IMG/VR virus record: IMGVR_UViG_3300032282_005553
Coordinates: 1 to 64,000 of that record
Reading direction: 5' to 3' (one strand)
Length of the DNA stretch: 64,000 nucleotides
From: a virus
Under the pieces are notes generated by a model that saw only the letters and a list, made by a program, of their open reading frames with translations, had not been told where the DNA came from and did no database searches. Of this stretch, positions 25,311 through 64,000 are shown piece by piece (within the stretch, counting starts at the first letter, position 1; every line of letters starts with the position of its first letter). The translations under genes were made by a program, and so were the position numbers.

Positions 25311-25326
25311 AAGGAGAATAATACTC

Positions 25327-28869: not shown

Positions 28870-29310
28870 ATGCCAGCCGCCGAATATAATTTTACTATAG
28901 AAAAAGGAACATCTTTTGTTATAGCATTTGAGTACAAAGACGATAGTCAAATACCCATCAATATGACTAATTGGTGCGCTAGAATACGTTGGATAGAGGA
29001 TCAATCATCTCCAATAATAAGAACCTTCTCTACCAACACTAGAAACTCAGACTATGAACTTACTATTGATCCATTGTTAGGTAAAGTAATACTCAAACTC
29101 AGCGCAGTTTTCACAGCAGCACTAGATTTCGGAACTGCGAAATATGATTTTGAGCTTCAAGAACCCAACGATTTGTACTCAAGCGGTGGCAAAAAAATAT
29201 TCAGAATATTACAAGGTTCAATATCTCTATTAGCTAGAAATGTTCCTGGTAATGACGCATTTGCCTGTGATACCGATGTACAAAACGATTGCGGGACTTG
29301 TAATCCATGA
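28870..29310 (+). CDS. beta-sandwich fibre adaptor protein (paralog of 13173..13577)
   Basis: YNFTIEKGTSF...INMTNWCARI...AKYDFELQEPNDLYSSGGK. Confidence 0.6.
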   Translation: MPAAEYNFTIEKGTSFVIAFEYKDDSQIPINMTNWCARIRWIEDQSSPIIRTFSTNTRNSDYELTIDPLLGKVILKLSAVFTAALDFGTAKYDFELQEPNDLYSSGGKKIFRILQGSISLLARNVPGNDAFACDTDVQNDCGTCNP

Positions 29311-38300: not shown

Positions 38301-39629
38301 TTTTATGTAGAATATATCAACAACACTGTATTTCCAACATATAAACAAAATGTTATTCCGTCTGCTAGTGGCATAGCATATTGGATACATTCCAAAGATG
38401 GGGAATTTCCACCAGTATATCCAGTAGATAATTTTCAATTAATAATACCAACAGGACAGATATATAATAAGCAATTCACATTTATTGGAGGAAGATCAGA
38501 CGGGTCACCAAACTATTACAGCACTAATCTGCCTAGAGTCACAGGCTACATAGAACAAAAAAGGTTTAATACTTATTCTGGAACATACCATCAAGATCAA
38601 AATAGCTCGTCACTAAGACTATTATTTAGTGATCCTCCGAATTTAGAACTAAACGACGCAATCTATGTAGAATTTTTAACATCACAAAATCAGGTAAACT
38701 TTCTTCCTTCTGGTAGTGGTGTAATGATATCTTCTGTTTCGTCATCTCTATATACCATTAGCGACTTTATGACTAATAGTACAGTAGAAAAAAATGGTAC
38801 ATTTATTGCTAGAGACCTATATCAAATTTATGCTGATCCGACAGACAGCGACAATCTTAATATTAGATATAATAGTACAATTGATCCTCAAATATTCTCA
38901 ATAGGCACTGGCATAGATCTCATTGATAGCAGAGATAAGAGTAGATCATTATTAGGGAATATATTCAATATAGACTCATCTGTTGATATACCCAATACTG
39001 TAAATATTTCTGCTTTATCAGAATCCCCAGATCGTATTGCTACTATCTATAACGTATCTAGTGACTATTATTCAAATCTATTAGGAAGTAATTACACAGG
39101 TCTTTGCGATTTGAGAACAACAGTGTTTTATGAAAATCTTGCATTTACACGAAAGGTTAACGACTCTGCTAGTAATATAGGCACCACAACATATACTTTA
39201 ACAGGAATATTAAATAATCCATTTAATACATATACTTATAGAGTTATAACTTGCGATAATCTCTATTGGTCAAATATAGAAAACCGTAAAGTATACGGTA
39301 AAGATTTTGACTTGATCGTTACTGCTCCATTAACTATTATTCCAGAATCTAGTGGCATTATTGATTCAAATCCTAACATTAATGGTGGAATAGTTTGGAA
39401 TTTTTCATTCTCTGTAACCGGCGGATATATTCCGCGAGCTAATGACTTTTTAGAAATAGAGATTGATGATATGATTCATACATTCAATAGATCTGATACT
39501 GTTTATGAATCCGGGTTATATTCAATACTAACAACCAGACCGGGCATAAGTTGGACAGGTAGTACTTTTAATCTTAAAGTGTACGATAGCGTTAGTGTTG
39601 CTTCTGGTACTTTTGATATACCGAGCTAA
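29307..39629 (+). CDS. giant (3440 aa) fibre/adhesin protein
   Basis: Short GXY tract, GTYTKVSTDTKGRV and LDADLLDG fibre repeats, YadA-head-like SLAIGxxN repeats, Ig-like GGNPPY/GDLPAGI segments. Confidence 0.7.
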   Translation: MTIVNVIEEQNLSKYLVITQQKDPSTLITTRVVITDNANNRINLVNIERGIQGDIGPQGSQGIPGKDGMIFDVLPIASGGTNNTVFSNDKIVYFDGLKLTSSIYSVDELINSQNAITGIVTGSGLSKIDNGKNITLNTNLGDGLTLSNNAIVVDDTIARKSEISLGTVLPGAVPINKGGTNNTSFFTNTFVYFDGTKLTSFPLDTGRIVTSGSVINIVAGSGLVGGGQVSIPGGSVVINIPNSSDIAVLDNIIELSTTGTAGTYTKVSTDTKGRVVSGTQLTQADIISALGYTPWNPTNDGQDSGLDADLLDGKHGSFYTNLSNLTGTISTGILPNIVTPGLYSKVSVNSKGLVLGGSSIDSQDVYNALGYRPVSTSGDTITGNLDIDGSLNVQNSFTLKDNLPEFGYNNYSLFPNAPRGFSFTYGNVARRTGILAYYPDDNQLRLITNIYGTGITDLDGSISSETNYNGDVDGGDASSIYLMGNLDGDQAVVLLQHIADTRYISLTKDQIVNGIKSFNNYISVKNFVFIQNMNQGGPPLYVDGNSVLVDSLNVDFLDGEHGAYYRNAANITGYLNYATVNVTHISGTNTYIPKFDNRTPNPSRTITDSIVFQSGDNLIVVEDGSLSIGKTNKISSSESLAIGSSNNITSDNSLAAGYKNTISGDNSVAINYQTITRADNSFAMGKHGTTWIENQLSIGAFEELNPVDQIYRIGHGQQSTAALGYYGEAQSYTSMFPNITVPNNKTVLYNLDLLFSKFGSSGVASFRFASGIIKNTNGILTNIKSPIKQELYNSSQIRDYPYNIKIDSNDINKNQTLSVTQVPLKSNVPEIQNFPKVVKIKPNLSEISGQFFKTLDGNILLNMSTPIFSGWFTQGFNDKAVYIKSYDHGMVPGAYVDLQYIAGISGNIYKPTRGLSISGVKVTQVIDKDNFVVSSLSYEGVHEQSGTVFISYGNLISDPSQQITLSGTINQDSNVINNLSYLSGNVFINDLSNIKSSILPNMLLRIFNENVVGTLDSYPVRIVSTGYNNGNFQLIIDNLYTGITTNTSFGLYDYPIFALESSQKAFFNSEQFNTENAFTNFTLNSSGIRFDIFGYDNQTKPTGRYDITVTPVINYIDETSKTNSGTMYLHHKRSYDCSYKREKAIFAPYDVSYVHNKSDNGLSNINFAANSEIDFLINYDPYVQFLAATNSFSGILTSGSNLIINCYPTQEFNIVTGLLLHVNTSNFYYSGIVNDVNGTTLTMNNTFSLCSGSTGVLVIYSGQIPPSAKYTKLFTILNGSGYVAQREFLSPDTGIYFTGNAKVYSNYGYATITSHTLLPSKTKEYPANIADDEFVYIDFKTNNTGLIPIDNTYITTGCSPNTFKIISNHLMPDSGIACTGFSYATLDKDHGYLAPNSNSMSNVQQQIPLFFDIYPTYSAKSELYTSYYHNNNINRKPKDNILSIIGVTGHQILVNDNRYQLLKEINRSPLYNDYTKSYFNKYYINNKYYLYIDASKRYLEPNDKVIINKAFNIENGFINPKNIDNMKFKVADFIDNQYVLQLIENNDELISGVIDDTLIGNSGYISYLGFQDGYVTSPTNGFYFHSYGDGSESWRRDDRGIYINPPLTGFFNIYSSPKLCNSGTLCIHISGISDISYIPVNKQLFFDFIDTDPVLTGLYTVYDKLSNDLLTINIPYDSRYVNNSGLVYLIDALTNIKTDKNLNINNVFFQSYIYDDILGNKNLSSFNYYNNRWKHGIFLDNSGLVSPTGYLNTTIDVSHDGLPIISKTNANIIVMNPFDMSFDISYSGINTSNYEDLVPVLGQLPSLTTETNSLIYFMVSIKGGAGKWSNTINQCAPLVNILGLKDYSIVNKEFDEANQEWKIKIQAYAPNGVVNAKNLKFIVSDESDRQIKDIILSTSVPFTISNIEQTEYAQQFSTVPWKIFCDVYGGNPPYYITLPGVDVSDYDVYPLSNPAPYSDLPDHYTYLIKGTGWYSTTGINTQNIVVSDSSYKNITGIASFMITDYDKTFIVNPRMYKTNLVINKNSPGNNYITFLIPCRNSPPPGTTKVQFTNTQNLTLNNIVSSYYYSLDAYRYSIKVDVGNSTETNLYNIGITGSIIQPILREGLNENFVFSTGVSINVYQPVAVDTYKLVQPVPYDIDSVWALTLDIVNGAYYNSSVSGRQLRAYLGNTPNNGRYDSNPLQYKLGYSYVTNEASPRHRVSFTGLSDTFSVNNTTTGIHDLYYYVEDFTSYATGVIKILMNGGVDLINLHDKKYATPNNGFDINFDIEGLTYGPGENYSAPSIINNDSLKNDPLISFNSNYAKYDPHIKIWEYFYNGSPIPDKWNSELLIYNDILDVRVKGLSNDKIYVAGKFDTVETDNVIIVERPFGIKSVSPASIDDNQKTEGEAWEITVVTTGGLEDPFYPPLIKLSSTPLNTCTGYNPADAQNSQECVVPPSWNAASKEWTFKFNGPKLCLIGTYNVDIEAKDVIVGSINNGPKQILQVKGTASSGAPIFYKSGEAHPPPELDDIKNKNLFPNCSPFSESAEYRSKSREVCPQPTGISGVIAWGDLPAGIQFSNSRINSTAYVAPYNDLTPGIIYFNGTPTEFADGGKYPYKFYVNAVDAVGRSGSPKLIEFNDASKPIEISPTDLTIYFDKPGYQYTPELGTEIIDDDSQRVHRPPAAEFSMKCLSKLPHNKCVYSSGSYSNVVIQDGIFFGMDITSPQISKILQNNKVYVTFTGILNNDQGQPASLLNGSYTVDSINPANASIRITGINNKMYLLNLTDPTGGINIVNITDNRKNKSLSDVMNDYFINESQPLTTQFSLPDGSTSDVTGIMGDGKLGTIGQDTQTYGIYGRIKPIAYTTSTGYPDNTNAIFDNVNFHIIPGQEKFTEPYVVQFNNCYETGYLRVSGVIIPKFYIDITDPPPGTEGSNPRYFTQPSDDIGTVTRSSYGDDIAYRGSAQSSINARTVPITYVVKDQINNLIKINGSLSDESIGLYNKTITMSENDNASVYSFYVEYINNTVFPTYKQNVIPSASGIAYWIHSKDGEFPPVYPVDNFQLIIPTGQIYNKQFTFIGGRSDGSPNYYSTNLPRVTGYIEQKRFNTYSGTYHQDQNSSSLRLLFSDPPNLELNDAIYVEFLTSQNQVNFLPSGSGVMISSVSSSLYTISDFMTNSTVEKNGTFIARDLYQIYADPTDSDNLNIRYNSTIDPQIFSIGTGIDLIDSRDKSRSLLGNIFNIDSSVDIPNTVNISALSESPDRIATIYNVSSDYYSNLLGSNYTGLCDLRTTVFYENLAFTRKVNDSASNIGTTTYTLTGILNNPFNTYTYRVITCDNLYWSNIENRKVYGKDFDLIVTAPLTIIPESSGIIDSNPNINGGIVWNFSFSVTGGYIPRANDFLEIEIDDMIHTFNRSDTVYESGLYSILTTRPGISWTGSTFNLKVYDSVSVASGTFDIPS

Positions 39630-41135: not shown

Positions 41136-42593
41136 ATGGCACTATTATTTTTTGAAGGATTTAATGTCAGAAATACTGACAATACTCCGTATCTCGATCC
41201 TAGATACTGGACAGTCGAAGAAGAAACTCCGGCGATAATGTATTACCCGCAGGATGATTATGTTACAACATATTCTGATAATAATGCTATATTATATGGT
41301 ACTTATCGAAGTTTAGTCATATCAGGATACAGACTAGATACGATACCCGCTCAATATCCAGTACCAATACAGCTAAGTGGAGTATCTGGTTTAGATAGTG
41401 ATCAAATCTATATTTCTTTTAGAGTTGCTAATCTTGGTCACAGTCACACATATGGACTATCATATCCATATACAACTAAATTTTTAACATTATGTAGTGG
41501 TAATAAAGAATTGCTATCTTTTGATGTTGTGAAAACTACGGGATTAAGTATTCAGGGCGGAACATGGACTCCTTCTAATCAAGGTTTGGGTATTTCTGTT
41601 AAGCAAACTGGGTCCAATAATAGTATGACCCAAATAGGATTATTTGATTTTAGAGTACAAGGATTACAAAAATATACTATTACTAACTTTAGCTCTGCTC
41701 CTAATGATTTTATGCCAACAATGATAGAGTATTATTATGTAACTAACCAAGGATATGAGTCACACAATAAAAGATTTTTACATATAGAATTATTTGTTAA
41801 TACTGCAGAACAAAAAGTAAGAATGAAAATTGATGGATTCGATGTGCTAAATAGAGCCACAAGAGCACCATATGGACCAACCGCTTCTGGATCTAAACCG
41901 TTTGGATCATTTAATAATATTAAATTTTACCATAAAGGAATAATAGGAACAGCATATACAAATGGTCAAATAGATTATGGTAACCTAGTAATAGATGATC
42001 TCGCTATTTGCAACAATAGTGGAGAAACACCAAATACATGGATGGGACCAAATACAAGAATTATTCATTTAAATTCAATTGCTGTTGCTGATAACTCCAA
42101 TATAGGGTTGGCTAATTGGGAAGGAAATATTGGATCAAATGCTTCAAGACTTGATACTAATGATGGTGACACTAGTTATATATCATCTCAGACTTCTGGA
42201 CAGATCTACTCTCAGAGAATGAAATTTACACAAGATAGTAGTGCTGGTATTACAGATTATTTTGGACCATCAGACAATATAGGAGGGTTGCGCATTTTTA
42301 ATTCTGTTAGAAAAACATTCTTAGATTCTGATTTTATCAATGTGTATTCATCCGGAGAGGGACTTGGGTACTCCCAAAATGGAACATTGGATGGTTCGGA
42401 TTCGGAAAAGTATTATGAGATAGGAGATAGATACCAAATTGATCATACAAATTATTTTATTAGAAATTCTTTTGTTCTTAGAAATCCAATAACAAACTTA
42501 CCATGGGATACTGGAGTATTTTTTACACAACTAGAGGGACAAAGTGCTGGAATCGTTAAAACATCTGGATACTTTGGAGTTAAAAAATTATGA
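41136..42593 (+). CDS. virion structural protein, probable beta-sandwich/lectin-like
   Basis: MALLFFEGF start, VIDDLAI, C-terminal NPITNLPW...GVKK. Confidence 0.55.
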   Translation: MALLFFEGFNVRNTDNTPYLDPRYWTVEEETPAIMYYPQDDYVTTYSDNNAILYGTYRSLVISGYRLDTIPAQYPVPIQLSGVSGLDSDQIYISFRVANLGHSHTYGLSYPYTTKFLTLCSGNKELLSFDVVKTTGLSIQGGTWTPSNQGLGISVKQTGSNNSMTQIGLFDFRVQGLQKYTITNFSSAPNDFMPTMIEYYYVTNQGYESHNKRFLHIELFVNTAEQKVRMKIDGFDVLNRATRAPYGPTASGSKPFGSFNNIKFYHKGIIGTAYTNGQIDYGNLVIDDLAICNNSGETPNTWMGPNTRIIHLNSIAVADNSNIGLANWEGNIGSNASRLDTNDGDTSYISSQTSGQIYSQRMKFTQDSSAGITDYFGPSDNIGGLRIFNSVRKTFLDSDFINVYSSGEGLGYSQNGTLDGSDSEKYYEIGDRYQIDHTNYFIRNSFVLRNPITNLPWDTGVFFTQLEGQSAGIVKTSGYFGVKKL

Positions 42594-44422
42594 TAGAAAG
42601 AATCCGTATCCGAAGAGATTCTGCTGCAAATTGGGTAACATACAATCCTATACTAGCTACTGGTGAAGCTGGATACGAAACTACTACAAATAGACTTAAA
42701 ATAGGAAACGGGATTTCTACATGGTCAGCATTACCATACTTGGCAGGAGGCAGCGCAACAGTATTAAAATTTGGAAATGGTGGAGTTGATGATGCTTACA
42801 TTTGGTATTCGTCAGATAGACTCAACCTTATAGGTTCGGGTGGAACATCAATATACTTTGATCAATCAGCAAACAAAATTGTATTTTCTAGTCTTACCGG
42901 AGTTTCTACCACTCAATCGAGCGTCACTGGTGCGCTCGGATATACCCCGCAGCCTTCTGGTAATTATTCGGTCTCAGGTCATCAGCATAACATTTCTGAT
43001 ATTGTTAATTTACAGAATATTCTGGACAGCAAACAAACAACAGGTACATATGCTAACCTAACACATCAGCATCAAATAGTAGACATCAGTGGCCTACCTA
43101 ATGCTCTGAACAGCAAACAACCTAGTGGAAACTATTCTGTTTCTGGACATAATCATCCTTTATATATTTCTGATGGAATAAATAGAGTACTAACCTATAG
43201 TACCTCGGAAGAATTAAAAATAAGAGGTAGCGGCAATACCCAAGTATTATTTAACGATTCTACTAATACAATCACTATCGCTAGTGCTGGAGGCTCGGCT
43301 GGATCATTGGATCCGAACACGGTTGTTCTAACTACCGGAAATCAAAATATTAGTGGCACAAAAACTTTTGTTAATACTGGTATTTTTGAATCTGGATTAA
43401 TATCACTAAGAAATACAGCATTACAGATACAAAATACTTCAATTCCAACAACTCATTTTATTATTTTTACTGGTGACCCATCGGTCTCGCCAAAACAAAT
43501 CTATACTAGAACACCGACTCAGATCAAAACAGATTTAGATTTATCTAATCTAACTAATCATACACAAATCAAAAAAACTGATCAGACAACCATAGTGGGT
43601 AATATCCCGTTCTGGAATAGTATTAGTGGTGATCTGTTAGGCTCTGGATATGGAGTATCTTCTAATTTAATAAGTAATTCCGGAACAGGCTATTTGGTTA
43701 GAGCAGATACTGCTGTTTCTTATTTTGCATGGTCCGGGAGAAATATTTTTGCTGGTAGCGGATTATCTGGCGGAGGCGCACTGAATAACGATATAACAAT
43801 TAATATTGGAAAAGGAGATGGAATATCTGTTAATAATGATGTGATCTCTGTTGATAATACTGTGGTTCGCACAACCGGGGATCAAATTATAGATGGAATC
43901 AAAACATTTTCTACGGGTATCTTTTCTACAATTAGTGGCTCATTAGTCATATACAATACCGGAAATTTTATAGACGGACTATATATAAATAGTATCCCAG
44001 TTAGTTTATCTGGTCATGGACATTATATTAATGAAATTTCTGGACATCCAGTTACCGGTATAGGTGTTGCAAATTATATTGCAAAATGGATTGATGAGTC
44101 TGGAATCACTACAGGAATAATGTATGAATATAATAATCAGATAGGTATTAATATACAGCAGCCTTCGGGAGACTTCCATGTATCCGGTACTGCTATAGCT
44201 AATACCGGAATATTTTCTCAAATTATATTAACAAATGGGTCTCCATTTGATATTAATAAATATCCAGAAATTATTTTTAACAACGGAATCAAATTGATGG
44301 TTTTAGAAGATAAAATAAAGTTTGATGGTTTTGACCTATATAATGAACTATTAACTATTAATAAAAGTGGAATAAGTACACCAAATATTGACAATAGCCA
44401 AATTCATGGTGGATATTTCTAA
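42590..44422 (+). CDS. fibre protein with Mtd-N N-terminus and HxH repeats
   Basis: RIRIRRDSAANW...GEAGYETTTNRLKIGNG; HQHxIxDI repeats; ends IHGGYF. Confidence 0.75.
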   Translation: MIERIRIRRDSAANWVTYNPILATGEAGYETTTNRLKIGNGISTWSALPYLAGGSATVLKFGNGGVDDAYIWYSSDRLNLIGSGGTSIYFDQSANKIVFSSLTGVSTTQSSVTGALGYTPQPSGNYSVSGHQHNISDIVNLQNILDSKQTTGTYANLTHQHQIVDISGLPNALNSKQPSGNYSVSGHNHPLYISDGINRVLTYSTSEELKIRGSGNTQVLFNDSTNTITIASAGGSAGSLDPNTVVLTTGNQNISGTKTFVNTGIFESGLISLRNTALQIQNTSIPTTHFIIFTGDPSVSPKQIYTRTPTQIKTDLDLSNLTNHTQIKKTDQTTIVGNIPFWNSISGDLLGSGYGVSSNLISNSGTGYLVRADTAVSYFAWSGRNIFAGSGLSGGGALNNDITINIGKGDGISVNNDVISVDNTVVRTTGDQIIDGIKTFSTGIFSTISGSLVIYNTGNFIDGLYINSIPVSLSGHGHYINEISGHPVTGIGVANYIAKWIDESGITTGIMYEYNNQIGINIQQPSGDFHVSGTAIANTGIFSQIILTNGSPFDINKYPEIIFNNGIKLMVLEDKIKFDGFDLYNELLTINKSGISTPNIDNSQIHGGYF

Positions 44423-53139: not shown

Positions 53140-53445
53140 ATGTATTATGACCCAGAAAGACTAAGATTCTATGTAGAAAAAAGAATACAAACCACCATGA
53201 TAGGCGCACTAGCTAGAATAGAAAATACATTTGGACACCTTTGGGGACAAGATAAAGAAGGTGAACTTACTCGCGAAGAAGAAGAGTTTGCTGACGCATG
53301 GGATTTTTTGAGAAACGATATATTGAATTATGGAAACAAACAAATAAGACAAGTAAAGGAAGATTTTTATAAGTATGGTGGACTTTTCAAAAATACGTAT
53401 AATTATACTTTTAAAGTAAGAAAGGATGATAGTAATGAAAATTGA
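53140..53445 (+). CDS. hypothetical protein
   Basis: 101 aa, in operon. Confidence 0.6.
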   Translation: MYYDPERLRFYVEKRIQTTMIGALARIENTFGHLWGQDKEGELTREEEEFADAWDFLRNDILNYGNKQIRQVKEDFYKYGGLFKNTYNYTFKVRKDDSNEN

Positions 53446-54313
53446 AACATTTAAAGTTAAAAAGGATGACAAGGAAATTGAATTAGCAGTAAGGTCACCA
53501 TCTCTAGAAGATCAAAGAGAGGCCCAAAAGATTTACAATCAGGCATTTACAGATGCTATAAAATCTAAATCTGTTGTTAGGGCAAAACTCGATGATTTAC
53601 TAGAAGATCAGGGGCTATGGAATCAAGAAAAGCAGGCTAAGTTCACCGAACTACAACAGCAAATCCTTGATGGAGAAAAAAGATTAGCTAAGGGCGGCTT
53701 CTCACTTAAAGAGGCCAAAAATCTTGCTATAGAAATGAAAAGAACCAGAGAAGAAATTAGAGAATTAATTAGTGTTAGAACAAGTTTGGACAATCATAGT
53801 GCAGAAGGTCAAGCTGATAATGCTAAGTTTAATTATTTAGTATCTTCTTGTGTGGTGTATAAAGAGAATAATCAGAAATATTTCAAGAATCTAGAAGATT
53901 ATATGAATAAGTCTGATGATCCTGCTGCTCTATTAGGGGCGCAAAAGTTGGCTAATATGATTTACGGATTGGATAACAACTTTGAAAAGAACTTGCCAGA
54001 AAACAAGTTTTTACAGAGATATAAATTTGTTGATGAAAAACTAAGACTCATTAATAAAGACGGTAAATTGGTCGATATCGATGGTCGATTAATTGATGAA
54101 AATGGTCGATTTATTAATGAAAAAGGAGAATTTGTCGATAAAAACGGAAATAGGGTAGATAAAGATGGAGAATATATTGTTGATTCTCAACCATTCCTTG
54201 ATGACGATGGCAGGCCCATCCTATTAGAAAATGAAACCAACAATCAACCAGTGCAAGAAACCAAGGTCGTTGAATCAGCAGAATCAGTCGAAAATAAGAC
54301 AGATTCTAACTGA
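53435..54313 (+). CDS. putative tail assembly chaperone with 7-aa tandem repeats
   Basis: Helical body; LINKDGK-LVDIDGR-LIDENGR-FINEKGE-FVDKNGN-RVDKDGE; directly before the tape measure. Confidence 0.55.
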   Translation: MKIETFKVKKDDKEIELAVRSPSLEDQREAQKIYNQAFTDAIKSKSVVRAKLDDLLEDQGLWNQEKQAKFTELQQQILDGEKRLAKGGFSLKEAKNLAIEMKRTREEIRELISVRTSLDNHSAEGQADNAKFNYLVSSCVVYKENNQKYFKNLEDYMNKSDDPAALLGAQKLANMIYGLDNNFEKNLPENKFLQRYKFVDEKLRLINKDGKLVDIDGRLIDENGRFINEKGEFVDKNGNRVDKDGEYIVDSQPFLDDDGRPILLENETNNQPVQETKVVESAESVENKTDSN

Positions 54314-54411: not shown

Positions 54412-57400
54412 ATGGCTAAAGGATTTAATTTAACAGCAGAAATTAATCTAAGAGGACCAGCGAACATTCGTACGGTCGTTGCCGATATACGTCGTCAATT
54501 AGGTACTGTTTCAGCGAACGTTAATGTAAAAGTGAATCCTGCATCATCCAGAAATATAGCTGGATTAAATCAAGCATTAACTAATCTTAATAATACTCTT
54601 TCTCAGACGAATGTATTGGCAACCCAAGTTACGGCATCGCTAAATGCTTTGGCAACCGCTGGCGGAACAGCATCTACATCTCTTGGAGGACTCCCAAGAT
54701 CGATGGGCTCGGCAACAGCATCTCTTAATAGATTTAATGCTAGTGCAGCGAATACAGGAAATGCTCTTAGAGTTTCTCGAACAGAATTCGAGGAATTCGG
54801 ACGTCAAGCTGCTCTAGCAGTAAGAAGATTTGCTGCATTTTCTACTGTTACTAGCGTTGTATTCAAGGTAACGAACGCTATTAGTTCAGCATATACAGAG
54901 TTCGTTGCTTTTGATAAAGAATTAGTCAGAGTGGCACAGGTTACTGATTCATCACTATCTAGTTTATCTGGATTAGAAAGAAGCATCACAAATTTATCAA
55001 CATCGCTTGGTGTATCGTCACAAGACTTAATTAAAGTTAGTAGCACATTAGCTCAGGCAGGATTGTCTGCCAAAGACACAGAAAAATCATTGAAAGCTTT
55101 AGCATTAAGTGCTTTGGCTCCATCATTCGAGGGACTAAATGATACGGTCGAAGGTAGTATTGCTCTTATGAGACAGTTCGGTATACAGGCTGGCGATCTT
55201 GAAAAATCTTTGGGTTCTATCAACGCAGTATCTGCTAGGTTTGCTGTAGAGGCCGGAGATATTATTGCTGCCATTCAGCGCACTGGTGGTGTGTTTGCTG
55301 CTGCGTCTAGAGGAGTTAGCGAAGGTAAAGATGCCTTAAATGAATTTATCGCAGTATTTACTAGTATTCGTGCCACAACTCGTGAAAGTGCAGAGACAAT
55401 TGCTACAGGCTTAAGAACAATTTTTACAAGAATACAAAGATCTAGCACAATAGAAGCACTAAAAGAATACGGAGTCAATCTTACAGATATTGAAGGTAAG
55501 TTTGTTGGAGCATATAAAGCTGTAGAACTACTTAGTGGTGGACTTGGTAAACTAGACCCAAGAGATCTTAAATTCAGTAAGATCATAGAAGAACTTGGTG
55601 GATTTAGACAGATTGGTAAAGTTATCCCTTTGATTCAAGAGTTCGCAACCGCACAACAAGCGTTGGCTGTCGCACAAAAGGGTCAGGGATCTTTAAGTAC
55701 AGACGCCGCTACTGCACAACAGGCATTAGCTATCAAGATATCAAAGGTAAGAGAAGAATTTATCGCATTAATTAGGTCTGTATCAAAAAGTGATAGTTTT
55801 CAAAATTTTATCAATTTGAGTCTTGATTTAGCAAGTTCACTCATAAAGCTTTCTGATTCTGCAAAAGTTTTACTACCAGCATTAACTGCCATTGCAGCAA
55901 TTAGGGGTGCTAGTTTTATAACGCAATTTTCTAGAGGATTTGCTGGTGGTATAAGAACTCAACGCAATAACAATGGTGGTCCGATAAGAGGTTTCGCTAC
56001 AGGGGGCTTGGTACCTGGGCGCGGTGATACAGATACATATCCCGCTATGTTAACTCCTGGTGAGTTTGTTATACGTAAAAAAGCGGTAGATAAAATAGGT
56101 GTTACTAATTTACATAGAATTAACAGGGCATCTGGAGGATATATTCCAAAAGTAAAATCAGAAAGCTCTGAACCAAAACAATATTTTGATGGAGCAAGAT
56201 CACAAAGAACAGTACAAAAAACTAAAAATAGTGGAAGATATATCGCCCCCAAAGTTAGCATACCAGAAAGAGCACACATAGGTGGTGATCTTTATATAGA
56301 TCAATCCTTTTTAGTCAGATATCTAGAGAGATACTCTGCATCAAAACTAAAAAGATCTATAGGAGAATTTTCTGGTACAAAACCAGGCATGGCAGTAGGC
56401 GTTATTGGTGGAATGAGTAAAACAGAATATGATAAATTTATCAAAGAAAAATTAAATCTGTCAGTTAAAAAAAGAATACGTCTGAATTTCCCAAGAACAT
56501 TTAATCAGGCATTAAGAGCAACAGACCCAGGTCTAGTATTAAAGAACGATCTTGTAGACATCGTATCATCTGCTCCAGACTTGACCGATCCTTTAGGCGG
56601 CTTGTCTTCATCAGAAATCAATAAAATTAAACAAAATAGTATACGAAAAATAAGATCATTAAAAGCATTACCAGCATCATCTTATCGTAAAAACTTAGGC
56701 TGGAGATCTGACACACCAGACAGTCTCAAAAATGCCCCAGCATTTGATAGCGATTATCAGCTCAATCCTTTGGCTCAAATAATAGAATCTAGTGTCAATC
56801 AGACAACCAAACAGAAACTACAAAACAATATAGATTTATTATTCAGATCATCAAAAAAAGACGCAAAATATATCTCTAGCAAAACAGGCCAAGAAAGAAC
56901 AAGAACTCAATCAAGAGAATCTGCTAGATTATCTACTATAATGAAAAAATATAGCAATGATCCTAGAAATGTGCAAAGAAGAGAAGAGTCATATTATGAC
57001 AGAGGATTAGAAAACGCAATATCTTCTTTACCAGAAAAAAGAAGTCGTAAAAAATCACAAACTACTTCCAACTACCCAAAAGATCGTATACCATTTTATA
57101 TGTTAAATGCTGGTGGTTCAGTACAAAGATTTGCTGATGGTGGAGTTACCACTAGAAATGTGGGTTATATAGACAGTGATGCGCTAAATGATCCAGCAAA
57201 TAAAGCTTTAGTAGATGAGCAAATAGAAAAACTTAAAAAACAAGGAATCAAAATAGAAGGTGGATACAGAGGCTATAAACAATATCTATCGGACCTTGCT
57301 GCAAAAGCTCGTCAAGAAAAACAAATTGGAAGATTAACATCTATCGTAGGGTTACCCGGAGCCGGTAAGAGCACCATGATGATGGGTAGTTCTCAGGCTG

Positions 57401-60400
57401 ACAATGCCACAATGAGAAAAACTACCAGATTCCCCATATTGACACCTGAAGATATAACAAGATCATCCTCAGTAATAGACGTTACAGCAAGTGTAAATCC
57501 TAAAAAAATAGATGCTTCTCTACAAGCATCAGATAGAATAGTATCATTGTCTTCATCAACTAAAGAAGAACAACAAGAATTACGCAGAAGACGAAAATTA
57601 AGAAATAGACAAATAGAGTCCGGAACCTCAACAACCGGTTTTGGTCGCAGAGCAGGAACAACGGATTCCGCCCCAGTAGATAGTGGATATATTGAAGCTA
57701 TTTTACAATCAGAAATTAAAGACCCCAAGAAGATAAGAACACTTGGAGTGACACCAAAAGGATTTAGAACAAAAAGAGGAGATGATATACCAGAAATATT
57801 AAAGGAAAAAATTAATCTATATTATGGTAATTTTGGACCAACAACAGCAGGCCACGTTGCTGCTCAACAACAAGGAATGCAAGAATCCGCTAAAAGAGGT
57901 ATTTCAAAATCAATTGTGGCTGTTGGGATAGATACTCCAGTTAAATCTGGAGATGAGCACTCTACAAGATCAGCATTATTGAGCCAAAAAGAAAGAATTG
58001 CTTTAGCTAAAAAAGCATTCCCAGAGTCGTCTATAACCGCAGCGACAAAAGAAACCTTTGGTTTCGGATTACCATCTCTCTATGAAATAGAAAAGAGTGG
58101 AACAGACAGAAGAAGATTTGTTAAGCCATTGGGTGGTAGCACAGCCACAGTAGGAGACGAAAAAGGATCAAGTTCTTTACAAAAATATTTAGATGCTGGA
58201 TTCGATCCTAAAGATATATTAACTCTTGAAAGATTGGGTGGTATTAGTGGTACTAAAGTTAGAGAGGCTCTATTAAAGGGTGACACCAAAACCCTAAAAA
58301 AATTAACAAGTCCAGCAGTATTCGATATTCTTAGTAGAAATTCTGAAGTTTTTCAAAGAAGATCTAGTATTTTACCAAAAATTATGGAGCGTATAGGAAC
58401 TAGAGCAACTTCATCACTAGGAGCAATAGAGGCCGAACTTGCAAAATATCCAGGTAGACTAACTCCCAAGATCAAAGCTGAACACCCAGAATACGAAGAG
58501 ATAGTAGATAATCTTAGAAAACAAAGAGATAAAATAAAAGCAAAAGCTGAATCCCGTTCGGGATCGACAATGAGAAGATTATCTAGAATGTTTCCATCAG
58601 CATACGGTATTGATATTGGAGATACTCAAAAGTTTATGGCTGGAGAAGCAGTAAAAGCTAGGGTCGGCAGGAAAAAAGCAGAAAGACTACATGATACTGA
58701 CATTGGCGAGGCTAGAACAAAGACCGCTAGCGAAATTATTTCAGAATTGACCATCTCCAGTGCTCAACAAGTATTAACGGAAGCTGGTGGAGCTAGAGTT
58801 AATGCGAATACATTACTTAGAAAATCAAAACTTAATCCAGATGAGCTTAGACTAAAAGACAGTATTTTATCTGCATATGTCACTAAAGTTAATGCTAAAG
58901 CTAAAGAGGCAAGAGAAAGAGACTTAGGAGCAACAACATCCGCACAACAAGCTAAGACTTTATTTGGTGTCATAGGAATGTTTGGAAATGGTTTTCCGGC
59001 TGAAAATATAACTTTGGAAGATGGACTTAAAAAACCCACTACTGTTAGAGTATTTGGCGCTGTTTTAGATAAGAATAAAGCTGAAAAAGATGCTAGATTA
59101 GAACAAAGAAAGAATAGATTAAGCGCTATAAATACTAAAAGAACTATAAAAGGTAAATCGAGACTGTCAGACTCAAGAGCACAAGATATTGAAAATGCTC
59201 CCATGGCATCTGCTCTCAGCAAAGAGTATTTACAAGAAGATTTATCTGGAATTACAAAAAGGACGGGTATCACACCACAAATGACTCCTGCTCTTAAAAA
59301 ATCTTTAGCTGATAGTCAAGGATCTAAATTTCAAAATGATGTTACTGCAACCTTAATTAAAACTCCAGAAGGTAAGGAAATATCCGATTCTATGATGAGA
59401 GATAATCAGCAAAGAAGCATAGACTTTCCATATGGGATTGGTATGTCTATGGCCAAGAATTGGTTTAATAATGCTTTATTAGCGAATATACCAGTTGATG
59501 CCAAAAGAACACTAACAGGACCAAGAGGAAAATTACTTAGTAATATCACTAATTATTTAAAAACTAAAGGATTTGCTATAGGTGGACACATACCAGAAAA
59601 TAATGAAGATTCGGTTCCAGCACTATTGACACCCGGAGAATTTGTGATCAATAAAAAAGCAGCCCAAAGAATAGGTGCTGCTAAATTACATCAGTTAAAC
59701 AGAGCAGATAGAATAAAGGGTTTCAATAAGGGTGGTGCTGTTGGACCACAAAGATTTTTCCTAGGAGGAGGAGCATCTGCCAGACCAGGAGATAGTGCTA
59801 ATATAAATAATTTAATGGTTCCTGCTAGTTCTATCAATCAATTGAGACTAATAGTAGATGCTCTTGAAGAACTAGGAGTTAGTGCTTCAAAATCAGCAGA
59901 TCTACTTAAAAAAGGAGGAAGAGCTAGTATACAAGCAGCACATGCCGCATATGAAGCTGATATAGTAAGACTACGTATTGCTGGTGCTCCCATACAAACA
60001 GTAATTAATGCTGAAACACAATTAGCAAATATGAGGCAGCAAGCAACGAGACAAGTTGCAGCACAAAGACAACTTTCTGGAGTTGGTGGATCAAAACTAC
60101 AAAGAATAGATACGGCAGCCCAAAACAATATTCAGAGAATGGTCCAGAGAGCTCAAAATGCTGGAGTAAATCTTGATGAAAATCAAATGCGTCGCATTGA
60201 AGATTTAGGATATAGAAGAGCTGCTACGAGAGCGAGAATATCTCCAACACAAATGGCAGGATTAAATGGTAATGATTTACGTCAATTTATTAACAGTGCC
60301 ATGGGTGATCCTAAAACTTTTCAGCAAATGAATAAAACTTTTGAGACACAGAGAAAACAAGAAATATTAAGACAAATAAATATTGAAAGAGGAGTTACTA

Positions 60401-63400
60401 ACGATAAAAAAGAAATAGCAAATAGATCCAAAGAAGCCAGAATGCTCGCGAAGGAAGAATCTGATGCTCGTAGACAGATACTAAACCAAACTAGAGGATC
60501 GTCCGGTCCGGGCTCTGCTAGATCGCAAAGATTTAATCAGGCAATGTTTGGAGCTAGTTTTGTTTTACCAATGGTAGGTCAAATGATGGGTGGAGATCCA
60601 TCAAATGCAGGATCATCTGCTCAAGCTGGTCAGATCGCCGGTGCTCAAGGGGCCGTAAACATGGCTAGTACAGGAGCTATGGTGACGAGCATGGCCGCCA
60701 CAGGACCAATTGGAATAGCGCTAGGTGCTGCTGCTACGGCCGTTGCGACTTTTGGACAAGCCACTATGGATGCCCATAATGCAGTAATTGATTTTGAGAA
60801 ACAATTAGTTGCTAAAAAAGTAGAACATGCAATAGCTGATATCAATAAAATGTTTGAAAAATTAGCTAAAGATCTTAGTAATGTAGATATTCAAAATTCT
60901 ATAACCAAAAAATTAAACGAAGCCACCTCAATCTTAATTGATAATATGGAGTTCCAAAGAAGAACTGCTAAAATTTATTGGACAAATATCATTGATATGA
61001 TGGCAAATAATAATAATGCATCTAATGAAAGAAGTAGGATATTAGAAAAACATGGTACAGGGGCGTATCTGAATTCTACAGCGTTTGGACAAAATCCGGT
61101 TGGAATGACGCTTAATGCAATAGCTTTTGGTATACCTGATGCTATATACAAAGCATTTAATGGCAAAAGCATGTTTGCTGGATCAGAAGAGAAAGCGAAT
61201 CAAAATAGATACGAATATACCAAAATGATGATACCTGACCAGGCTAGAGAATCAGCTAGAGGGTTCGCTGACCTTGCCGATACTGCTACAAGATTAATAG
61301 AAGAAAAAATTAGATCAGGAATGAATGTTGATGATATCATTAATAATCCAGACTTTGAAAAATATGGAAGAAATTTGGCATTGGCTAATTCTTCGGTACA
61401 AGAACAAATTTTGACTCTTAGAAATAGTATTCTTGTTGCTGATGATGAGAAAAAAGCTAGAGAAGAATCAATTATCAAAACATATGCTGAAGAGGAAGCA
61501 AGAAGAAGAGCTTCTATTGTAGCAAGAGAAATCGAGATAAGAGAAGCTAAAAAAAGTAGCGCTAAAATGTCCAGATCTCTAGAAAGAATGTTCCAAAATA
61601 TGGAGCAAGCAATAAATAGAACAAATTTCGGACTGCAACGAATGGCTGATGAGTTGGATCTTGTAACATCTTCATTAACTGGACAGGCCAAGGCCGGAGA
61701 GGGAGTACTAAAAAGCATCAATGTACTACAAAATCCAAGAGCATACTCCTCAAGAGACTTCTCTGAAGCAAGTAATCAAGCGGCATCATTTTTTGGCGAT
61801 AATTCTGGATTAATGAATGGATTATTAACTTTAGGTAATGATATCGAAACAACAATTATGGGTACTATTAGTAGGACCCTATCGGAAAATGAAGGAGACA
61901 ATCAAGAAAAAATTTCTGTTGCTATTGAAAGGGCTGTAAAAACTAAATTAGCTGATCTTGCTTTGCCAGAAGACGTTTCTGCTAAATTAGCTAGAGAAGT
62001 AAAAAGAGCTCTTGATCAATTAAGAAAAGAAGGTGATCAGAAGATAGATTTTAGTCAACTAGAAGAACGCTTACAAGATATCAGTAAAGTTTTTGATAGT
62101 GCAAAAAGAGCACAAGAAATAGCCATAAAAGCTCTGGAAAACTGGAATAGTGCTCTTAATGCCTATGCAGAGAGTATGAATAGAATTGTCGAACTACAGA
62201 TCTCTTATCAAGCTAGAGCTAGAAAATCTACCGAACTACAAACGAATGCACAACTAGAACTTGCTAAAGTGCTCGGTAGAGATGTTTCTGTATCAGATAT
62301 TAAAGAAAAAAGAGACTCACAAATTCGTCAACAGACCGGTGGTTTAACATCTCCAGATAGTATAGCAAAAAACTTTGCTAACCTAGAAGAAAAACGCAGA
62401 CAACAAGAAGCCGCTATTGATGTAGCAAGAAATCAAGGAGCAAGAGGAGCCGAAGATTTCCAAAAGATGCAAAATAATTTGGCTAAGACCAATGTTGCTT
62501 TAAGAGAAAATTATGATGCTCTTAAAAATCTTGCTGAAAATTCTGATGTCGCTGCTGCTGCTCTCAATAAAGTACAAGAAGCTCAACAAAAACAACAAGG
62601 AAAAGTTAGTTTTATAGAAAAACTTGTGACCAGTACTCCAGACGAATACAACGCATTAAACAGAGCTGTTATTAGATTACAACGAAATATGAATGGCCAA
62701 ATGAATTCAATCAATAACAGTGTTGGTGCTCAAAAAGCATATGCAGAAGCTTTGAATGAAGGAGCTAGTGCTGCAGAAGCCATGAGAGCAGCTCAAGCGG
62801 CATTTGCTAATGAAAGAAAAGATACACTATCAGCATTAAATGATTTGTTACCATTCCTTGGCAATGGACAACAAGCTAATCAAATAAGAGCAAATACATT
62901 ACAATCTATGCTAAAAGAGAGTGGACTCGGCGTCTCTCCTCTGATGCAACAAATTTTAGATTCTTTAAGGAACCCTGAGCTTGATCCAGAAACACAAAAA
63001 GCAATTCAACTATATGAAGATGCTAATCAATTACAAATAGCAGCAAATAATTCTTTAGTAAAAATAGAACAAGCATTAGCTGATGCCACAGCAGATAAAG
63101 CAGCAAAAGCTATAGCATCTGCTTTAGAAAAAACAATATTGACTTTTAAAACAGCAGAACAACAAGATATTAATAATGGAGTTGCTCAAGGTAGAGCATT
63201 TGGTGGTATTATCTATGCTTCAGAAGGAATGTTTACTCCCAGAGGTACAGATACTGTCCCCGCTATGTTAACGCCGGGAGAATTTGTAGTTAATAAAGCA
63301 GCAACAGCTAAAAATTTAGGATTATTACAAAATATTAATAATAATCATTATAGCACTGGTGGAAAAGTTAATTATTATGCAGCCGGGGGTTATGTTAGCA

Positions 63401-64000
63401 GCATACAAAAAGAAAATAAAAGAACTGAAGAAAACTTTAAAGAAACACAGGATAAATTTTTAGATTTAGATGATCCAGGACTAAGAGAAGTACTATCAGG
63501 CTCTGAGGGATCAAAGATTTATCAAATTCCTGGAAGATTCATTAAGGTAAAAGAGGATGCTCTAGCCCAAACTCCTGATCGTAATGCGTATAATGCCGGG
63601 GCTATGCCAAGATGGGATCTGAGTAAGATTTTTGACGCTCATCAGGATGGAAATATTGTTCCGGGTTATTCTATGGGTATGCAGATGAAGCGTACTTCAA
63701 CATTTCTTTATGGCAATATAGATTGGCCATTAATATATCCAATACCTGGAGTAACAAATACAGAACCAGTAGAAATTGGTAATGGTTCTTTTATTGGAGG
63801 CTTGACTGAAGATAAAAGAATATCGCTTGCTACTAAGCCATATGTTGTATCTGATGAAAAAAAATATTTAGAACAACTTCAAAGACTAAAAATTACACCT
63901 GAATTTATAAAAAAGAAATTTGCATGGATCTCTAATGCTGCTCATCCAGTAAGACAGGCAATAGATGGAGATATATTAGATTATCCCACTGATGTGACTC
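54412..64000 (+). CDS. giant tape measure protein (>3190 aa, runs off window) with embedded kinase, nucleotidyltransferase and nuclease-like domains
   Basis: AAGGA RBS, ATG 54412. No stop in the segments translated by hand (54412-59820, 60541-60780, 63181-64000), and no + strand ORF is listed here in the track, consistent with one unterminated frame. TP901-type core (LAQAGLSA...RQFGI...RESAETIATGLRTIFTRI...GGFRQ); three PA(M/L)LTPGEFV modules; Gly/Ala hydrophobic stretch at 60541-60760. Confidence 0.9.
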   Translation, partial: MAKGFNLTAEINLRGPANIRTVVADIRRQLGTVSANVNVKVNPASSRNIAGLNQALTNLNNTLSQTNVLATQVTASLNALATAGGTASTSLGGLPRSMGSATASLNRFNASAANTGNALRVSRTEFEEFGRQAALAVRRFAAFSTVTSVVFKVTNAISSAYTEFVAFDKELVRVAQVTDSSLSSLSGLERSITNLSTSLGVSSQDLIKVSSTLAQAGLSAKDTEKSLKALALSALAPSFEGLNDTVEGSIALMRQFGIQAGDLEKSLGSINAVSARFAVEAGDIIAAIQRTGGVFAAASRGVSEGKDALNEFIAVFTSIRATTRESAETIATGLRTIFTRIQRSSTIEALKEYGVNLTDIEGKFVGAYKAVELLSGGLGKLDPRDLKFSKIIEELGGFRQIGKVIPLIQEFATAQQALAVAQKGQGSLSTDAATAQQALAIKISKVREEFIALIRSVSKSDSFQNFINLSLDLASSLIKLSDSAKVLLPALTAIAAIRGASFITQFSRGFAGGIRTQRNNNGGPIRGFATGGLVPGRGDTDTYPAMLTPGEFVIRKKAVDKIGVTNLHRINRASGGYIPKVKSESSEPKQYFDGARSQRTVQKTKNSGRYIAPKVSIPERAHIGGDLYIDQSFLVRYLERYSASKLKRSIGEFSGTKPGMAVGVIGGMSKTEYDKFIKEKLNLSVKKRIRLNFPRTFNQALRATDPGLVLKNDLVDIVSSAPDLTDPLGGLSSSEINKIKQNSIRKIRSLKALPASSYRKNLGWRSDTPDSLKNAPAFDSDYQLNPLAQIIESSVNQTTKQKLQNNIDLLFRSSKKDAKYISSKTGQERTRTQSRESARLSTIMKKYSNDPRNVQRREESYYDRGLENAISSLPEKRSRKKSQTTSNYPKDRIPFYMLNAGGSVQRFADGGVTTRNVGYIDSDALNDPANKALVDEQIEKLKKQGIKIEGGYRGYKQYLSDLAAKARQEKQIGRLTSIVGLPGAGKSTMMMGSSQADNATMRKTTRFPILTPEDITRSSSVIDVTASVNPKKIDASLQASDRIVSLSSSTKEEQQELRRRRKLRNRQIESGTSTTGFGRRAGTTDSAPVDSGYIEAILQSEIKDPKKIRTLGVTPKGFRTKRGDDIPEILKEKINLYYGNFGPTTAGHVAAQQQGMQESAKRGISKSIVAVGIDTPVKSGDEHSTRSALLSQKERIALAKKAFPESSITAATKETFGFGLPSLYEIEKSGTDRRRFVKPLGGSTATVGDEKGSSSLQKYLDAGFDPKDILTLERLGGISGTKVREALLKGDTKTLKKLTSPAVFDILSRNSEVFQRRSSILPKIMERIGTRATSSLGAIEAELAKYPGRLTPKIKAEHPEYEEIVDNLRKQRDKIKAKAESRSGSTMRRLSRMFPSAYGIDIGDTQKFMAGEAVKARVGRKKAERLHDTDIGEARTKTASEIISELTISSAQQVLTEAGGARVNANTLLRKSKLNPDELRLKDSILSAYVTKVNAKAKEARERDLGATTSAQQAKTLFGVIGMFGNGFPAENITLEDGLKKPTTVRVFGAVLDKNKAEKDARLEQRKNRLSAINTKRTIKGKSRLSDSRAQDIENAPMASALSKEYLQEDLSGITKRTGITPQMTPALKKSLADSQGSKFQNDVTATLIKTPEGKEISDSMMRDNQQRSIDFPYGIGMSMAKNWFNNALLANIPVDAKRTLTGPRGKLLSNITNYLKTKGFAIGGHIPENNEDSVPALLTPGEFVINKKAAQRIGAAKLHQLNRADRIKGFNKGGAVGPQRFFLGGGASARPGDSANINNLMVPASSINQLRLIVDALEELGVSASKSADLLKKGGRASIQAAHAAYEADIVRLRIAGAPIQTVINAETQLANMRQQATRQVAAQRQLSGVGGSKLQRIDTAAQNNIQRMVQRAQNAGVNLDENQMRRIEDLGYRRAATRARISPTQMAGLNGNDLRQFINSAMGDPKTFQQMNKTFETQRKQEILRQINIERGVTNDKKEIANRSKEARMLAKEESDARRQILNQTRGSSGPGSARSQRFNQAMFGASFVLPMVGQMMGGDPSNAGSSAQAGQIAGAQGAVNMASTGAMVTSMAATGPIGIALGAAATAVATFGQATMDAHNAVIDFEKQLVAKKVEHAIADINKMFEKLAKDLSNVDIQNSITKKLNEATSILIDNMEFQRRTAKIYWTNIIDMMANNNNASNERSRILEKHGTGAYLNSTAFGQNPVGMTLNAIAFGIPDAIYKAFNGKSMFAGSEEKANQNRYEYTKMMIPDQARESARGFADLADTATRLIEEKIRSGMNVDDIINNPDFEKYGRNLALANSSVQEQILTLRNSILVADDEKKAREESIIKTYAEEEARRRASIVAREIEIREAKKSSAKMSRSLERMFQNMEQAINRTNFGLQRMADELDLVTSSLTGQAKAGEGVLKSINVLQNPRAYSSRDFSEASNQAASFFGDNSGLMNGLLTLGNDIETTIMGTISRTLSENEGDNQEKISVAIERAVKTKLADLALPEDVSAKLAREVKRALDQLRKEGDQKIDFSQLEERLQDISKVFDSAKRAQEIAIKALENWNSALNAYAESMNRIVELQISYQARARKSTELQTNAQLELAKVLGRDVSVSDIKEKRDSQIRQQTGGLTSPDSIAKNFANLEEKRRQQEAAIDVARNQGARGAEDFQKMQNNLAKTNVALRENYDALKNLAENSDVAAAALNKVQEAQQKQQGKVSFIEKLVTSTPDEYNALNRAVIRLQRNMNGQMNSINNSVGAQKAYAEALNEGASAAEAMRAAQAAFANERKDTLSALNDLLPFLGNGQQANQIRANTLQSMLKESGLGVSPLMQQILDSLRNPELDPETQKAIQLYEDANQLQIAANNSLVKIEQALADATADKAAKAIASALEKTILTFKTAEQQDINNGVAQGRAFGGIIYASEGMFTPRGTDTVPAMLTPGEFVVNKAATAKNLGLLQNINNNHYSTGGKVNYYAAGGYVSSIQKENKRTEENFKETQDKFLDLDDPGLREVLSGSEGSKIYQIPGRFIKVKEDALAQTPDRNAYNAGAMPRWDLSKIFDAHQDGNIVPGYSMGMQMKRTSTFLYGNIDWPLIYPIPGVTNTEPVEIGNGSFIGGLTEDKRISLATKPYVVSDEKKYLEQLQRLKITPEFIKKKFAWISNAAHPVRQAIDGDILDYPTDVT

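Follow-up and report, generated by a model that had tools for sequence, protein, structure and literature searches.

Phage tape measure proteins (TMPs) set the length of the tail, leave the virion first and help the DNA to cross the host envelope. The locus studied here raises the question of what else such a protein may do when its tape-like core is followed by thousands of residues that do not look like tape. We analysed bases 1-64000 of the IMG/VR virus record IMGVR_UViG_3300032282_005553 (hereafter the window, 64,000 nucleotides); the parent record is linear, 136,889 bp long and an estimated 92% complete, and the numbering is common to both. At the end of the window begins a giant open reading frame (ORF) that an earlier reading of the sequence, hereafter the original prediction, had described as a TMP built as a segmented polyprotein with enzymatic cargo between repeated modules. 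We found that a junction module occurs eight times in this protein, that relatives differ from it by whole segments, with homology blocks that often end at such modules, and that one insert is predicted to have an adenylyltransferase fold. Collectively, these results suggest, with a probability that we put at about 60%, that a tail lumen protein carries several enzyme inserts into the host, so that the ruler would double as a carrier.

A tape measure protein of 6,532 residues

The tape measure ORF occupies 54412..64000 (+) of the window, where it is open throughout (54412-63999, 3,196 aa, no stop), in agreement with the length of more than 3,190 aa first reported. In the full record it proves to be twice as long, running from 54412 to 74010 (+) and encoding 6,532 aa plus a stop over 19.6 kb with no internal stop. 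The identical 6,532-aa protein is recorded on 2 contigs from two sources, the longest contig measuring 170,008 bp, and a megablast of the ORF against cultured phages gave no match. It matched four TMP PHROG families (4211/167/28/24). The N-terminal TP901-type tape measure core (aa 1-510, 54412..55941, +), which had been recognised from the sequence, was confirmed by a match to PF10145 (PhageMin_Tail) at aa 191-395 (nt 54982-55596) that scores 83.8 bits against a cut-off, the Pfam gathering score, of 33.2; a hydrophobic stretch follows at aa 485-505. The core is kept in relatives, where PF10145 scores 85.4 and 91.6 bits, and the relatives that are named in their sources are called 'phage tail tape measure protein'. 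The gene is accordingly the TMP gene of an uncultured phage of about 137-170 kb.

A junction module repeated eight times

The segments that follow the core are separated by a module of the form GG...DTVPAMLTPGEFV...GG, of which we found eight copies in the 6,532-aa protein, three of them in the window. The three copies originally noticed are real, and only their number fell short, there being eight in the full ORF. Their PAMLTPGEFV cores lie at aa 544, 1736, 2950, 4042, 4913, 5089, 5872 and 6282. In the window, the core pattern identifies M1 (aa 511-604, 55942..56223, +), which has a positional counterpart, m1, in relatives, M2 (aa 1711-1796, 59542..59799, +) and M3 (aa 2919-3003, 63166..63420, +). 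Beyond the window, in the parent record and on the same strand, follow M4 (aa 4008-4094, 66433-66693), M5 (aa 4880-4966, 69049-69309), M6 (aa 5056-5138, 69577-69825), M7 (aa 5835-5924, 71914-72183) and M8 (aa 6248-6333, 73153-73410), the last of which stands 199 aa before the protein end.

The unit of about 85 aa opens with (A/S)xGG(h)(V/I)Y and a second xGG, continues with G-T-D-T-V-P-A-M-L-T-P-G-E-F-V and closes with a short helix pair that ends in N and is followed by (A/S)xGGxVxY again. In a set of 115 non-redundant copies the flanks are conserved (D 115/115, N 97%, GG 83-92%); the set was picked by the exact PAMLTPGEFV pattern, so that the invariance of the core is partly circular, and the flanks were unselected. 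The copies are 38-65% identical in DNA over the core, and the nearest match of each lies in another protein (0.69-0.75), not within its own (0.50-0.70), which argues that they are old and not recent duplicates. A LysM-like nature, an idea taken from the G-E-F-V...L...N spacing, found no support: the 8 copies gave no LysM match at E <= 10, and a low-confidence AlphaFold2 (AF2) model held only two short helices.

Furthermore, the pattern [FYLM]xxG[GE] occurs 34 times in the protein, against 11.5 +/- 3.3 in 500 shuffles, and 24 of these 34 occurrences fall inside modules. The motifs LNAGG (57103), FADGG (57130) and FMAGE (58633) were found at the positions previously given for them. Half-motifs of the type (Q/R)K(F/Y)AxGG also mark cassette borders without a full module: QRFADGG and QKFMAGE flank the enzyme cassette K described below, and RQK(F/Y)AxG closes a zincin-like domain in relatives.

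Among solved structures, the 115-sequence profile matched TMPs only, namely Douge gp16 at 964-1033 and 1411-1461 (E 2.7e-11) and lambda gpH at 728-789 (E 8e-4); a profile of the 8 copies reached gpH at 750-785 (E 0.012). The view that the module is a lambda-gpH-type element that has been multiplied is thus borne out by the match to gpH 728-789. A tblastn search of cultured phages returned the module in 113 records (Gordonia 71, Brevundimonas 9, Nodularia 9, Burkholderia 6, and others), and all 40 matches listed lie under annotated TMP genes. The exact pattern is present in at least 119 stretches of IMG/VR, with two or more copies in 37 of the 119 ORFs listed, and other IMG/VR records hold ORFs of at least 5,674 aa (8 copies), 4,413 aa (5), 3,956 aa (5) and at least 2,621 aa (5). 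Two cultured examples are the TMP of Brevundimonas phage Kikimora (2,340 aa), with one module and a Phage_lysozyme domain, and gp17 of Gordonia phage BoyNamedSue (2,146 aa), with three modules and an SLT lysozyme domain (aa 1543-1633) directly before the second.

An insert with an adenylyltransferase fold

The enzyme cassette K (aa 905-1420, 57124..58671, +), bracketed by QRFADGG (57124-57144, +) and QKFMAGE (58627-58647, +), was characterised by AF2 modelling, Foldseek, structure superposition and a profile search against the PDB. With a 17-sequence alignment, AF2 yielded an alpha/beta model with a predicted local distance difference test (pLDDT) score of 86.2 and a predicted template modelling (pTM) score of 0.79. 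Residues 226-412 of the model superpose on PPAT 4nah with Z 14.2 and a root-mean-square deviation of 2.6 (146/159 aligned), and the transferase domain also superposes on NMN/NaMN adenylyltransferases (Z 13.5), NadM and the NMNAT domain of NadR, the whole range of Z being 14.2-13.4. Foldseek agreed, with NadM, PPAT and NadD at the head of 78 matches at E <= 0.001 (best 8e-6). In sequence searches of the PDB, a profile of K matched MJ0951 (1.9e-7), NMNAT (0.005) and PPAT (0.02), and single-sequence searches with both protein halves gave a weak match to MJ0951 (0.077) only, with nothing for aa 3001-6532.

The adenylyltransferase-fold domain (aa ~1130-1316, 57799-58359, +), which is followed by long helices, carries GNFGPTTAGH at aa 1139-1148 and GGISGTKVREAL at aa 1276-1287. 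These contain a TxGH motif (57826-57855, +) and an ISGTxxR motif (58237-58272, +), which we take to be the (H/T)xGH and ISxTxxR signatures. Across the alignment of 17 sequences, ISxTxxR never varies in its Ser and Arg; conservation is at least 90% for its Thr and for G/P/H in the TxGH motif. Pfam gave no PF01467 hit in K, only HIGH_NTase1_ass at 24.0 bits with a cut-off of 26.7. From the model, the second domain of K is predicted to be of PPAT/NMNAT-type adenylyltransferase fold with the motifs of the superfamily, and we assign it to no named family or substrate.

The N-terminal part of K has a Walker A motif, GLPGAGKST (aa 980-988, 57349-57375, +). Its Atlas matches to AAA_33/Zeta_toxin clusters (0.81-0.86) lie under the 0.9 level and serve as leads only, and the fold-match lists of K were filled by the transferase domain. 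The cassette had been read as a kinase plus a nucleotidyltransferase; fold and motifs speak for the transferase, and for the kinase the evidence is the Walker A motif. That modules delimit segments unlike a tape holds well for this insert, which is a confident alpha/beta fold.

An exhaustive search for K in 1.84 billion representatives found 95 proteins (72 below 1e-30), of which 74 have at least 1,500 aa, the giants spanning 1,535-7,279 aa. A word-index search for stand-alone relatives of 283-903 aa found none, and by the exhaustive search K occurs almost only in giant proteins. By tblastn, K had no match in cultured phages at E <= 1e-3, and it is therefore so far confined to uncultured records.

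Relatives differ by whole cassettes

We compared the protein with a family set gathered through K (P0005-P0098). In 79 proteins the layout is core, module, (Z), K, (Z), module(s), S3, module, then [segment, module] units and a tail, where Z is the zincin-like domain and S3 a long segment described below. The first module lies at about aa 440-790, mostly near 510-615, and in full-length members the last lies about 100-270 aa (mostly 120-200) before the end. The protein is thus one of a large group of related TMPs of 3,000-7,300 aa that share this layout, differ in the number of further cassettes, each closed by a module, and end in a C-terminal tail of about 130-200 aa. Longer members than the one studied here are P0045 (7,279 aa) and P0031 (7,122 aa), and one is encoded on a contig of 235,486 bp.

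Coverage by the 78 relatives is uneven along the chain. The core is covered by 57-69 of them, K by 70-73 (by construction), S3 from aa ~2100 by 29-47, the zincin-like domain by 23, and most of S4, S5, S7 and S8 by 0-6. The closest relative (4,166 aa), named phage tail tape measure protein and binned with a Sphingobacteriia metagenome-assembled genome, is 59-63% identical in the shared blocks, and the ~2,400 residues that are extra here come as whole segments. High-scoring segment pairs (HSPs) of at least 200 aa against the family, which are not independent of each other, end in a module (+/-15 aa) in 118 of 230 cases and start in one in 23; module coverage alone predicts 14% of HSP ends in modules. 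Alignment with relatives, a check proposed with the original prediction, thus found core and modules kept, most other segments different and homology blocks ending at modules. The variability foreseen for the cargo applies to most segments and not to K and S3, which form a conserved backbone in these K-selected relatives.

These comparisons also bear on the concern that the ORF is an artefact, either a chimeric assembly over repeats or separate genes read as a single frame. The record is a metagenomic contig, and assemblers can be misled by repeats. However, the module copies share only the 38-65% DNA identity given above, with local DNA matches up to 74-81%, a 19.6-kb frame stays free of stops, and the layout is repeated in dozens of independent relatives. 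The same protein, identical, stands on two contigs from two sources and is therefore not an assembly accident. We regard an artefact of either kind as scarcely credible.

Other segments of the protein

A basic linker segment (aa 605-904, 56224..57123, +), noted before for its basic character and with a net charge of +68, ends in LNAGG and is kept in 5-7 of the 78 relatives. The segment at aa 1421-1710 (58672..59541, +), the 'nuclease-like' part of the original prediction, is present in 12-19 of the 78 and missing from the closest relative. S3 (aa 1797-2918, 59800..63165, +) contains a Gly/Ala-rich hydrophobic stretch at aa 2089-2115 (60676-60756), the only strongly hydrophobic internal stretch of the protein, and then a long part rich in helix formers, consistent with its earlier description as hydrophobic plus coiled-coil. 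Where a relative has both S3 and modules, a module almost always comes immediately after S3. By analogy with other TMPs, S3 may be a membrane-active, rod-like part.

The aromatic-rich segment S4 (aa 3004-4007, +) runs from 63421..64000 in the window to 66432 in the parent record; it has 9.9% FWY, is nearly confined to this phage (over aa 3001-3900 it is covered by 0-6 of the 78 relatives) and gave no usable match in an Atlas search. Further along the parent record and on the same strand lie S5 (66694-69048), the spacer S6 (69310-69576), S7 (69826-71913), S8 (72184-73152) and the C-terminal tail (73411-74007). A resemblance of the tail to sequences that follow modules was set aside as not robust, being confined to the sequence after M5 at E 1e-4 without composition correction.

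S5 contains the zincin-like domain Z1 (aa 4382-4670, 67555-68421, +), with HExxH at 67888-67908 and GLEEF at 68260-68280, and S7 a diverged counterpart, Z2 (aa ~5470-5840, about 70819-71931, +), with HExxH at 71149-71169 and GYEEF at 71722-71742. Z1 and Z2 are paralogous; both have the HExxH, a Y..D..G..Y block and a G.EEF.T block. All 11 aligned sequences and all 24 family hits carry an unchanged HExxH. The domain is found in 24 of the 79 members, always with HExxH, and its placement varies: before K, after K or, as here, after the fourth module. The only family match is SprT-like at 15.7-16.3 bits, below the cut-off of 25.6, and a profile of the domain found nothing above threshold in the PDB and Pfam.

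Absence of cysteine

The 6,532 residues include no cysteine, whereas cysteine averages 0.99% over the other ORFs of at least 150 aa on the + strand of the genome. The count is 21 Cys among the 331,602 aa of 76 family proteins and 0, 0, 0 and 1 in four IMG/VR relatives, and the two cultured TMPs of BoyNamedSue and Kikimora have none. The lack of cysteine extends over the enzyme inserts, which would fit inserts that share the fate of the chain, that is, storage in, and passage through, an oxidising compartment in a non-native state.

A proposed carrier in the tail lumen and its alternatives

In TMPs the tip complex holds the C-terminus and the chain is the core around which the tube polymerises; the chain is expelled first and helps to form the conduit for the DNA. 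Under the hypothesis of a carrier, assembly would thread the whole chain through the lumen of the tail tube, as it does with other TMPs, and the inserts, placed after the N-terminal core and before the C-terminus that binds the tip, should therefore end up inside that lumen. A folded insert of 516 aa would be about 5 nm across (arithmetic from its mass), and the tail lumen is about 4 nm wide; as the folded insert is the wider of the two, the inserts would be stored in an extended, non-native form and fold after ejection. The chain would be expelled ahead of the DNA, and the inserts, then folding, would be able to work at the envelope or in the cytoplasm while no phage gene is yet expressed. 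The adenylyltransferase fold modelled for K suggests that it works in the cytoplasm, or at least as a soluble protein.

A module closes every insert, and the last one stands before the tail that binds the tip. We give nearly even odds to the proposal that the module is left uncut and docks a conserved component of the tail (tube lumen, hub or assembly chaperone); the docked module would carry tube assembly and chain register past each non-helical insert. A more tentative proposal, by analogy with the copy next to the cut from gpH to gpH* in lambda, is that the module also marks post-assembly cleavage, and we think it improbable that it has some other role.

Several observations weigh against a carrier of enzymes. 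Among the inserts, the fold evidence covers K only; Pfam found nothing above threshold in S4, S5, S7, S8, aa 1421-1710 or four relatives, where the TMP core alone was matched, and the Walker A of K is degenerate in some family members. The family was gathered through K, which makes its 'conserved backbone' partly a matter of construction, and of four relatives found via the module, K was seen in only one. Lack of cysteine is common to ordinary TMPs and thus not specific to the carrying of cargo. The module alone, modelled by AF2 with the 115 sequences, reached a pLDDT of 58.4 with two short helices only (47-61), which argues that it is not an autonomous domain; on this model it is best described as a partner-dependent joint and not a domain of its own. 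A homotrimer prediction for the module scored 0.01 without controls and bears neither way on oligomerisation. Neighbouring genes are mostly without annotation, and no Phage_sheath_1, Prok-JAB or Peptidase_C1 match (E <= 1) was found in the 136,889-bp record, negatives that are weak in a record that is 92% complete with divergent genes, the Peptidase_C1 search being six-frame. Lumen packaging, ejection and insert activity are steps that we infer.

The original prediction went further and made the chain a polyprotein, cut at the Gly-Gly edges of every module into about nine pieces that would lie in the lumen and be freed as effectors on ejection. Its components (TMP identity, a multiplied module, non-tape inserts and cassette-wise variation) were borne out, and the cutting itself we judge unlikely. 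In lambda, the module copy (728-789) falls in gpHC and adjoins the Gly-rich zone of the gpH to gpH* cut at about 690-710, according to PMC12617516; there the site and the protease are given as unmapped, which leaves the link between module and cleavage positional. Half-motifs do stand at borders without a full module, for example where the zincin-like domain ends and, in most aligned relatives, where K begins, and a module with no fold of its own is what a recognition site would look like, but a near-invariant core of 13 residues plus a helix pair exceeds the needs of a cleavage site. The protease could come from the two in-cis HExxH domains; against this, the domain occurs in only 24 of 79 members and matches no curated peptidase family above threshold, and a JAB or papain-type protease was not detected in the genome, itself a weak negative. 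A plain ruler would need no cargo at all: on the scale of TP901-1, 118 nm per 810 aa (PMC5099701), the 6,532 residues would measure a tail of ~0.95 µm, with the enzyme-like parts as aids to envelope penetration and the modules as ordinary repeats. Such a length would come close to the record tail of P74-26; tails of nearly 1 µm with a 5,002-aa TMP are described for P74-26/P23-45 (PMC10034513; PMC10770324), S3 is rich in helix formers with a membrane-type stretch, and cultured module-bearing TMPs have lysozyme or SLT domains. We nevertheless find this reading doubtful, more so than the polyprotein, as the conserved K has a cytoplasmic cofactor-type adenylyltransferase fold and not that of a wall hydrolase, and cassette differences of ~2,400 aa between close relatives would mean tail-length jumps of ~350 nm. 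It is in any case compatible with the carrying of cargo, as P23-45 does both.

The carrier hypothesis can be extended to a tail lumen that serves as a loading bay for a changeable set of enzymes. K would then be a virion-delivered NAD- or CoA-type salvage enzyme that blunts metabolite-depleting defences before phage transcription, and the module a recognition element of TMP maturation, as once in gpH. This extension is a long shot; if true, it would explain the unmapped cut of lambda and describe a modular protein-injection system that is re-equipped by cassette exchange at modules.

Comparison with known tape measure proteins

The C-terminal arrangement around M8 resembles that of lambda gpH, in which one module is followed by a short, tip-binding C-terminal tail and lies beside a Gly-rich cleavage zone (PMC12617516). 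Unlike the protein studied here, gpH has 853 aa, one module instead of eight and no enzyme inserts. In the lambda reports, only gpH 818-849 is resolved and the region 690-817 with the module is not (PMC10721106, PMC12617516), and the cut site and protease are given as unknown (PMC12617516). For Douge gp16, only 1658-1699 was modelled, and the module is not described in the part of that paper at hand (PMC13033339).

The nearest precedent in size is gp96 of Thermus phage P23-45, a 5,002-aa TMP fused to a virion RNA polymerase, with metallopeptidase and transmembrane parts and a proposed role at genome entry (PMC10770324). Both are giant TMPs with an enzyme that acts, or in our case may act, in the cytoplasm. 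However, gp96 has a single N-terminal enzyme before the tape, whereas here several internal cassettes follow the core and are separated by modules, and the enzymes are unrelated, RNA polymerase as against an adenylyltransferase fold. T5 pb2 is cleaved in the virion, and its C-terminal piece is proposed to come free and to break down the wall (PMC12617516); it differs in having a single C-terminal enzyme part. No PDB chain named T5 pb2 was found among the module profile matches at E <= 1.

Actinobacteriophage TMPs share internal module copies (two in Douge gp16, three in BoyNamedSue gp17). They differ in having 2-3 modules within 1,700-2,150 aa and in that their inserts are envelope-acting peptidoglycan hydrolases; the TMP of TM4 reportedly has an embedded wall hydrolase motif. 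Polyvalent proteins of phages and conjugative elements (Iyer et al. 2017) are said to combine many enzyme-like domains, often with zincin-type peptidases, and to have been proposed to enter the host with the DNA; to our knowledge, they have neither a tape measure core nor the junction module.

TMPs with embedded enzymes are thus already known: those of actinobacteriophages and T5 hold wall hydrolases, and that of P23-45 an RNA polymerase (PMC10770324). What appear to be new are the multi-cassette build, the repeated gpH-type joint as the border of cassettes, the conserved adenylyltransferase-fold insert and the size of the family. In a literature search that covered few subscription journals, we found no description of repeated junction modules or multi-cassette TMPs.

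Our results would define a large family from uncultured phages whose ruler also carries several exchangeable enzyme-like cassettes. The active-site motifs of K are conserved and its fold is that of a cofactor-type enzyme, for which it is hard to see a use outside the cytoplasm. Should the inserts be delivered, the tails of siphophages would join capsid-internal proteins as a means of injecting proteins that act early. For lambda, the module is the only strongly conserved element near the unmapped gpH cut. Cultured Gordonia phages and mycobacteriophages with two or three module copies, including BoyNamedSue, and Kikimora with one are convenient experimental stand-ins.

Neighbouring genes

Two overlapping small ORFs (53140-53445 and 53426-54313, +) lie directly upstream of the TMP gene, the usual place of tail-assembly chaperones. 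Neither has a family match; the second is in frame +1 and opens only at 53420, and no canonical -1 slippery site was seen for a chaperone frameshift. The neighbouring genes gave no PHROG match save a tail-fibre family in 1 of 10, and those downstream had no Pfam match.

Genes upstream of the TMP gene encode the tail-fibre domains Mtd_N, BppL_N and Laminin_G_3. Mtd_N is found at the start of the ORFs 25285-26730 and 42590-44422 (+; E 3.9e-12 and 7.5e-15), and BppL_N repeats are present too. Mtd is the target of the diversity-generating retroelement in Bordetella phage BPP-1. The ORF 22276-23544 (+) has a Laminin_G_3 lectin domain (1.5e-25), and a Toxin_R_bind_N model matches the same stretch (5e-7); from its sequence we read it as a putative receptor-binding lectin fold of a tail fibre. 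A second giant ORF (29307-39629, +) of 3,440 aa with 20 Cys stands among the tail-fibre-type genes upstream of the TMP gene. A few genes downstream, at 85889-94021 (+) of the parent record, an ORF of 2,710 aa with no Pfam hit is rich in cysteine (80 Cys, 2.95%), the opposite of the Cys-free TMP.

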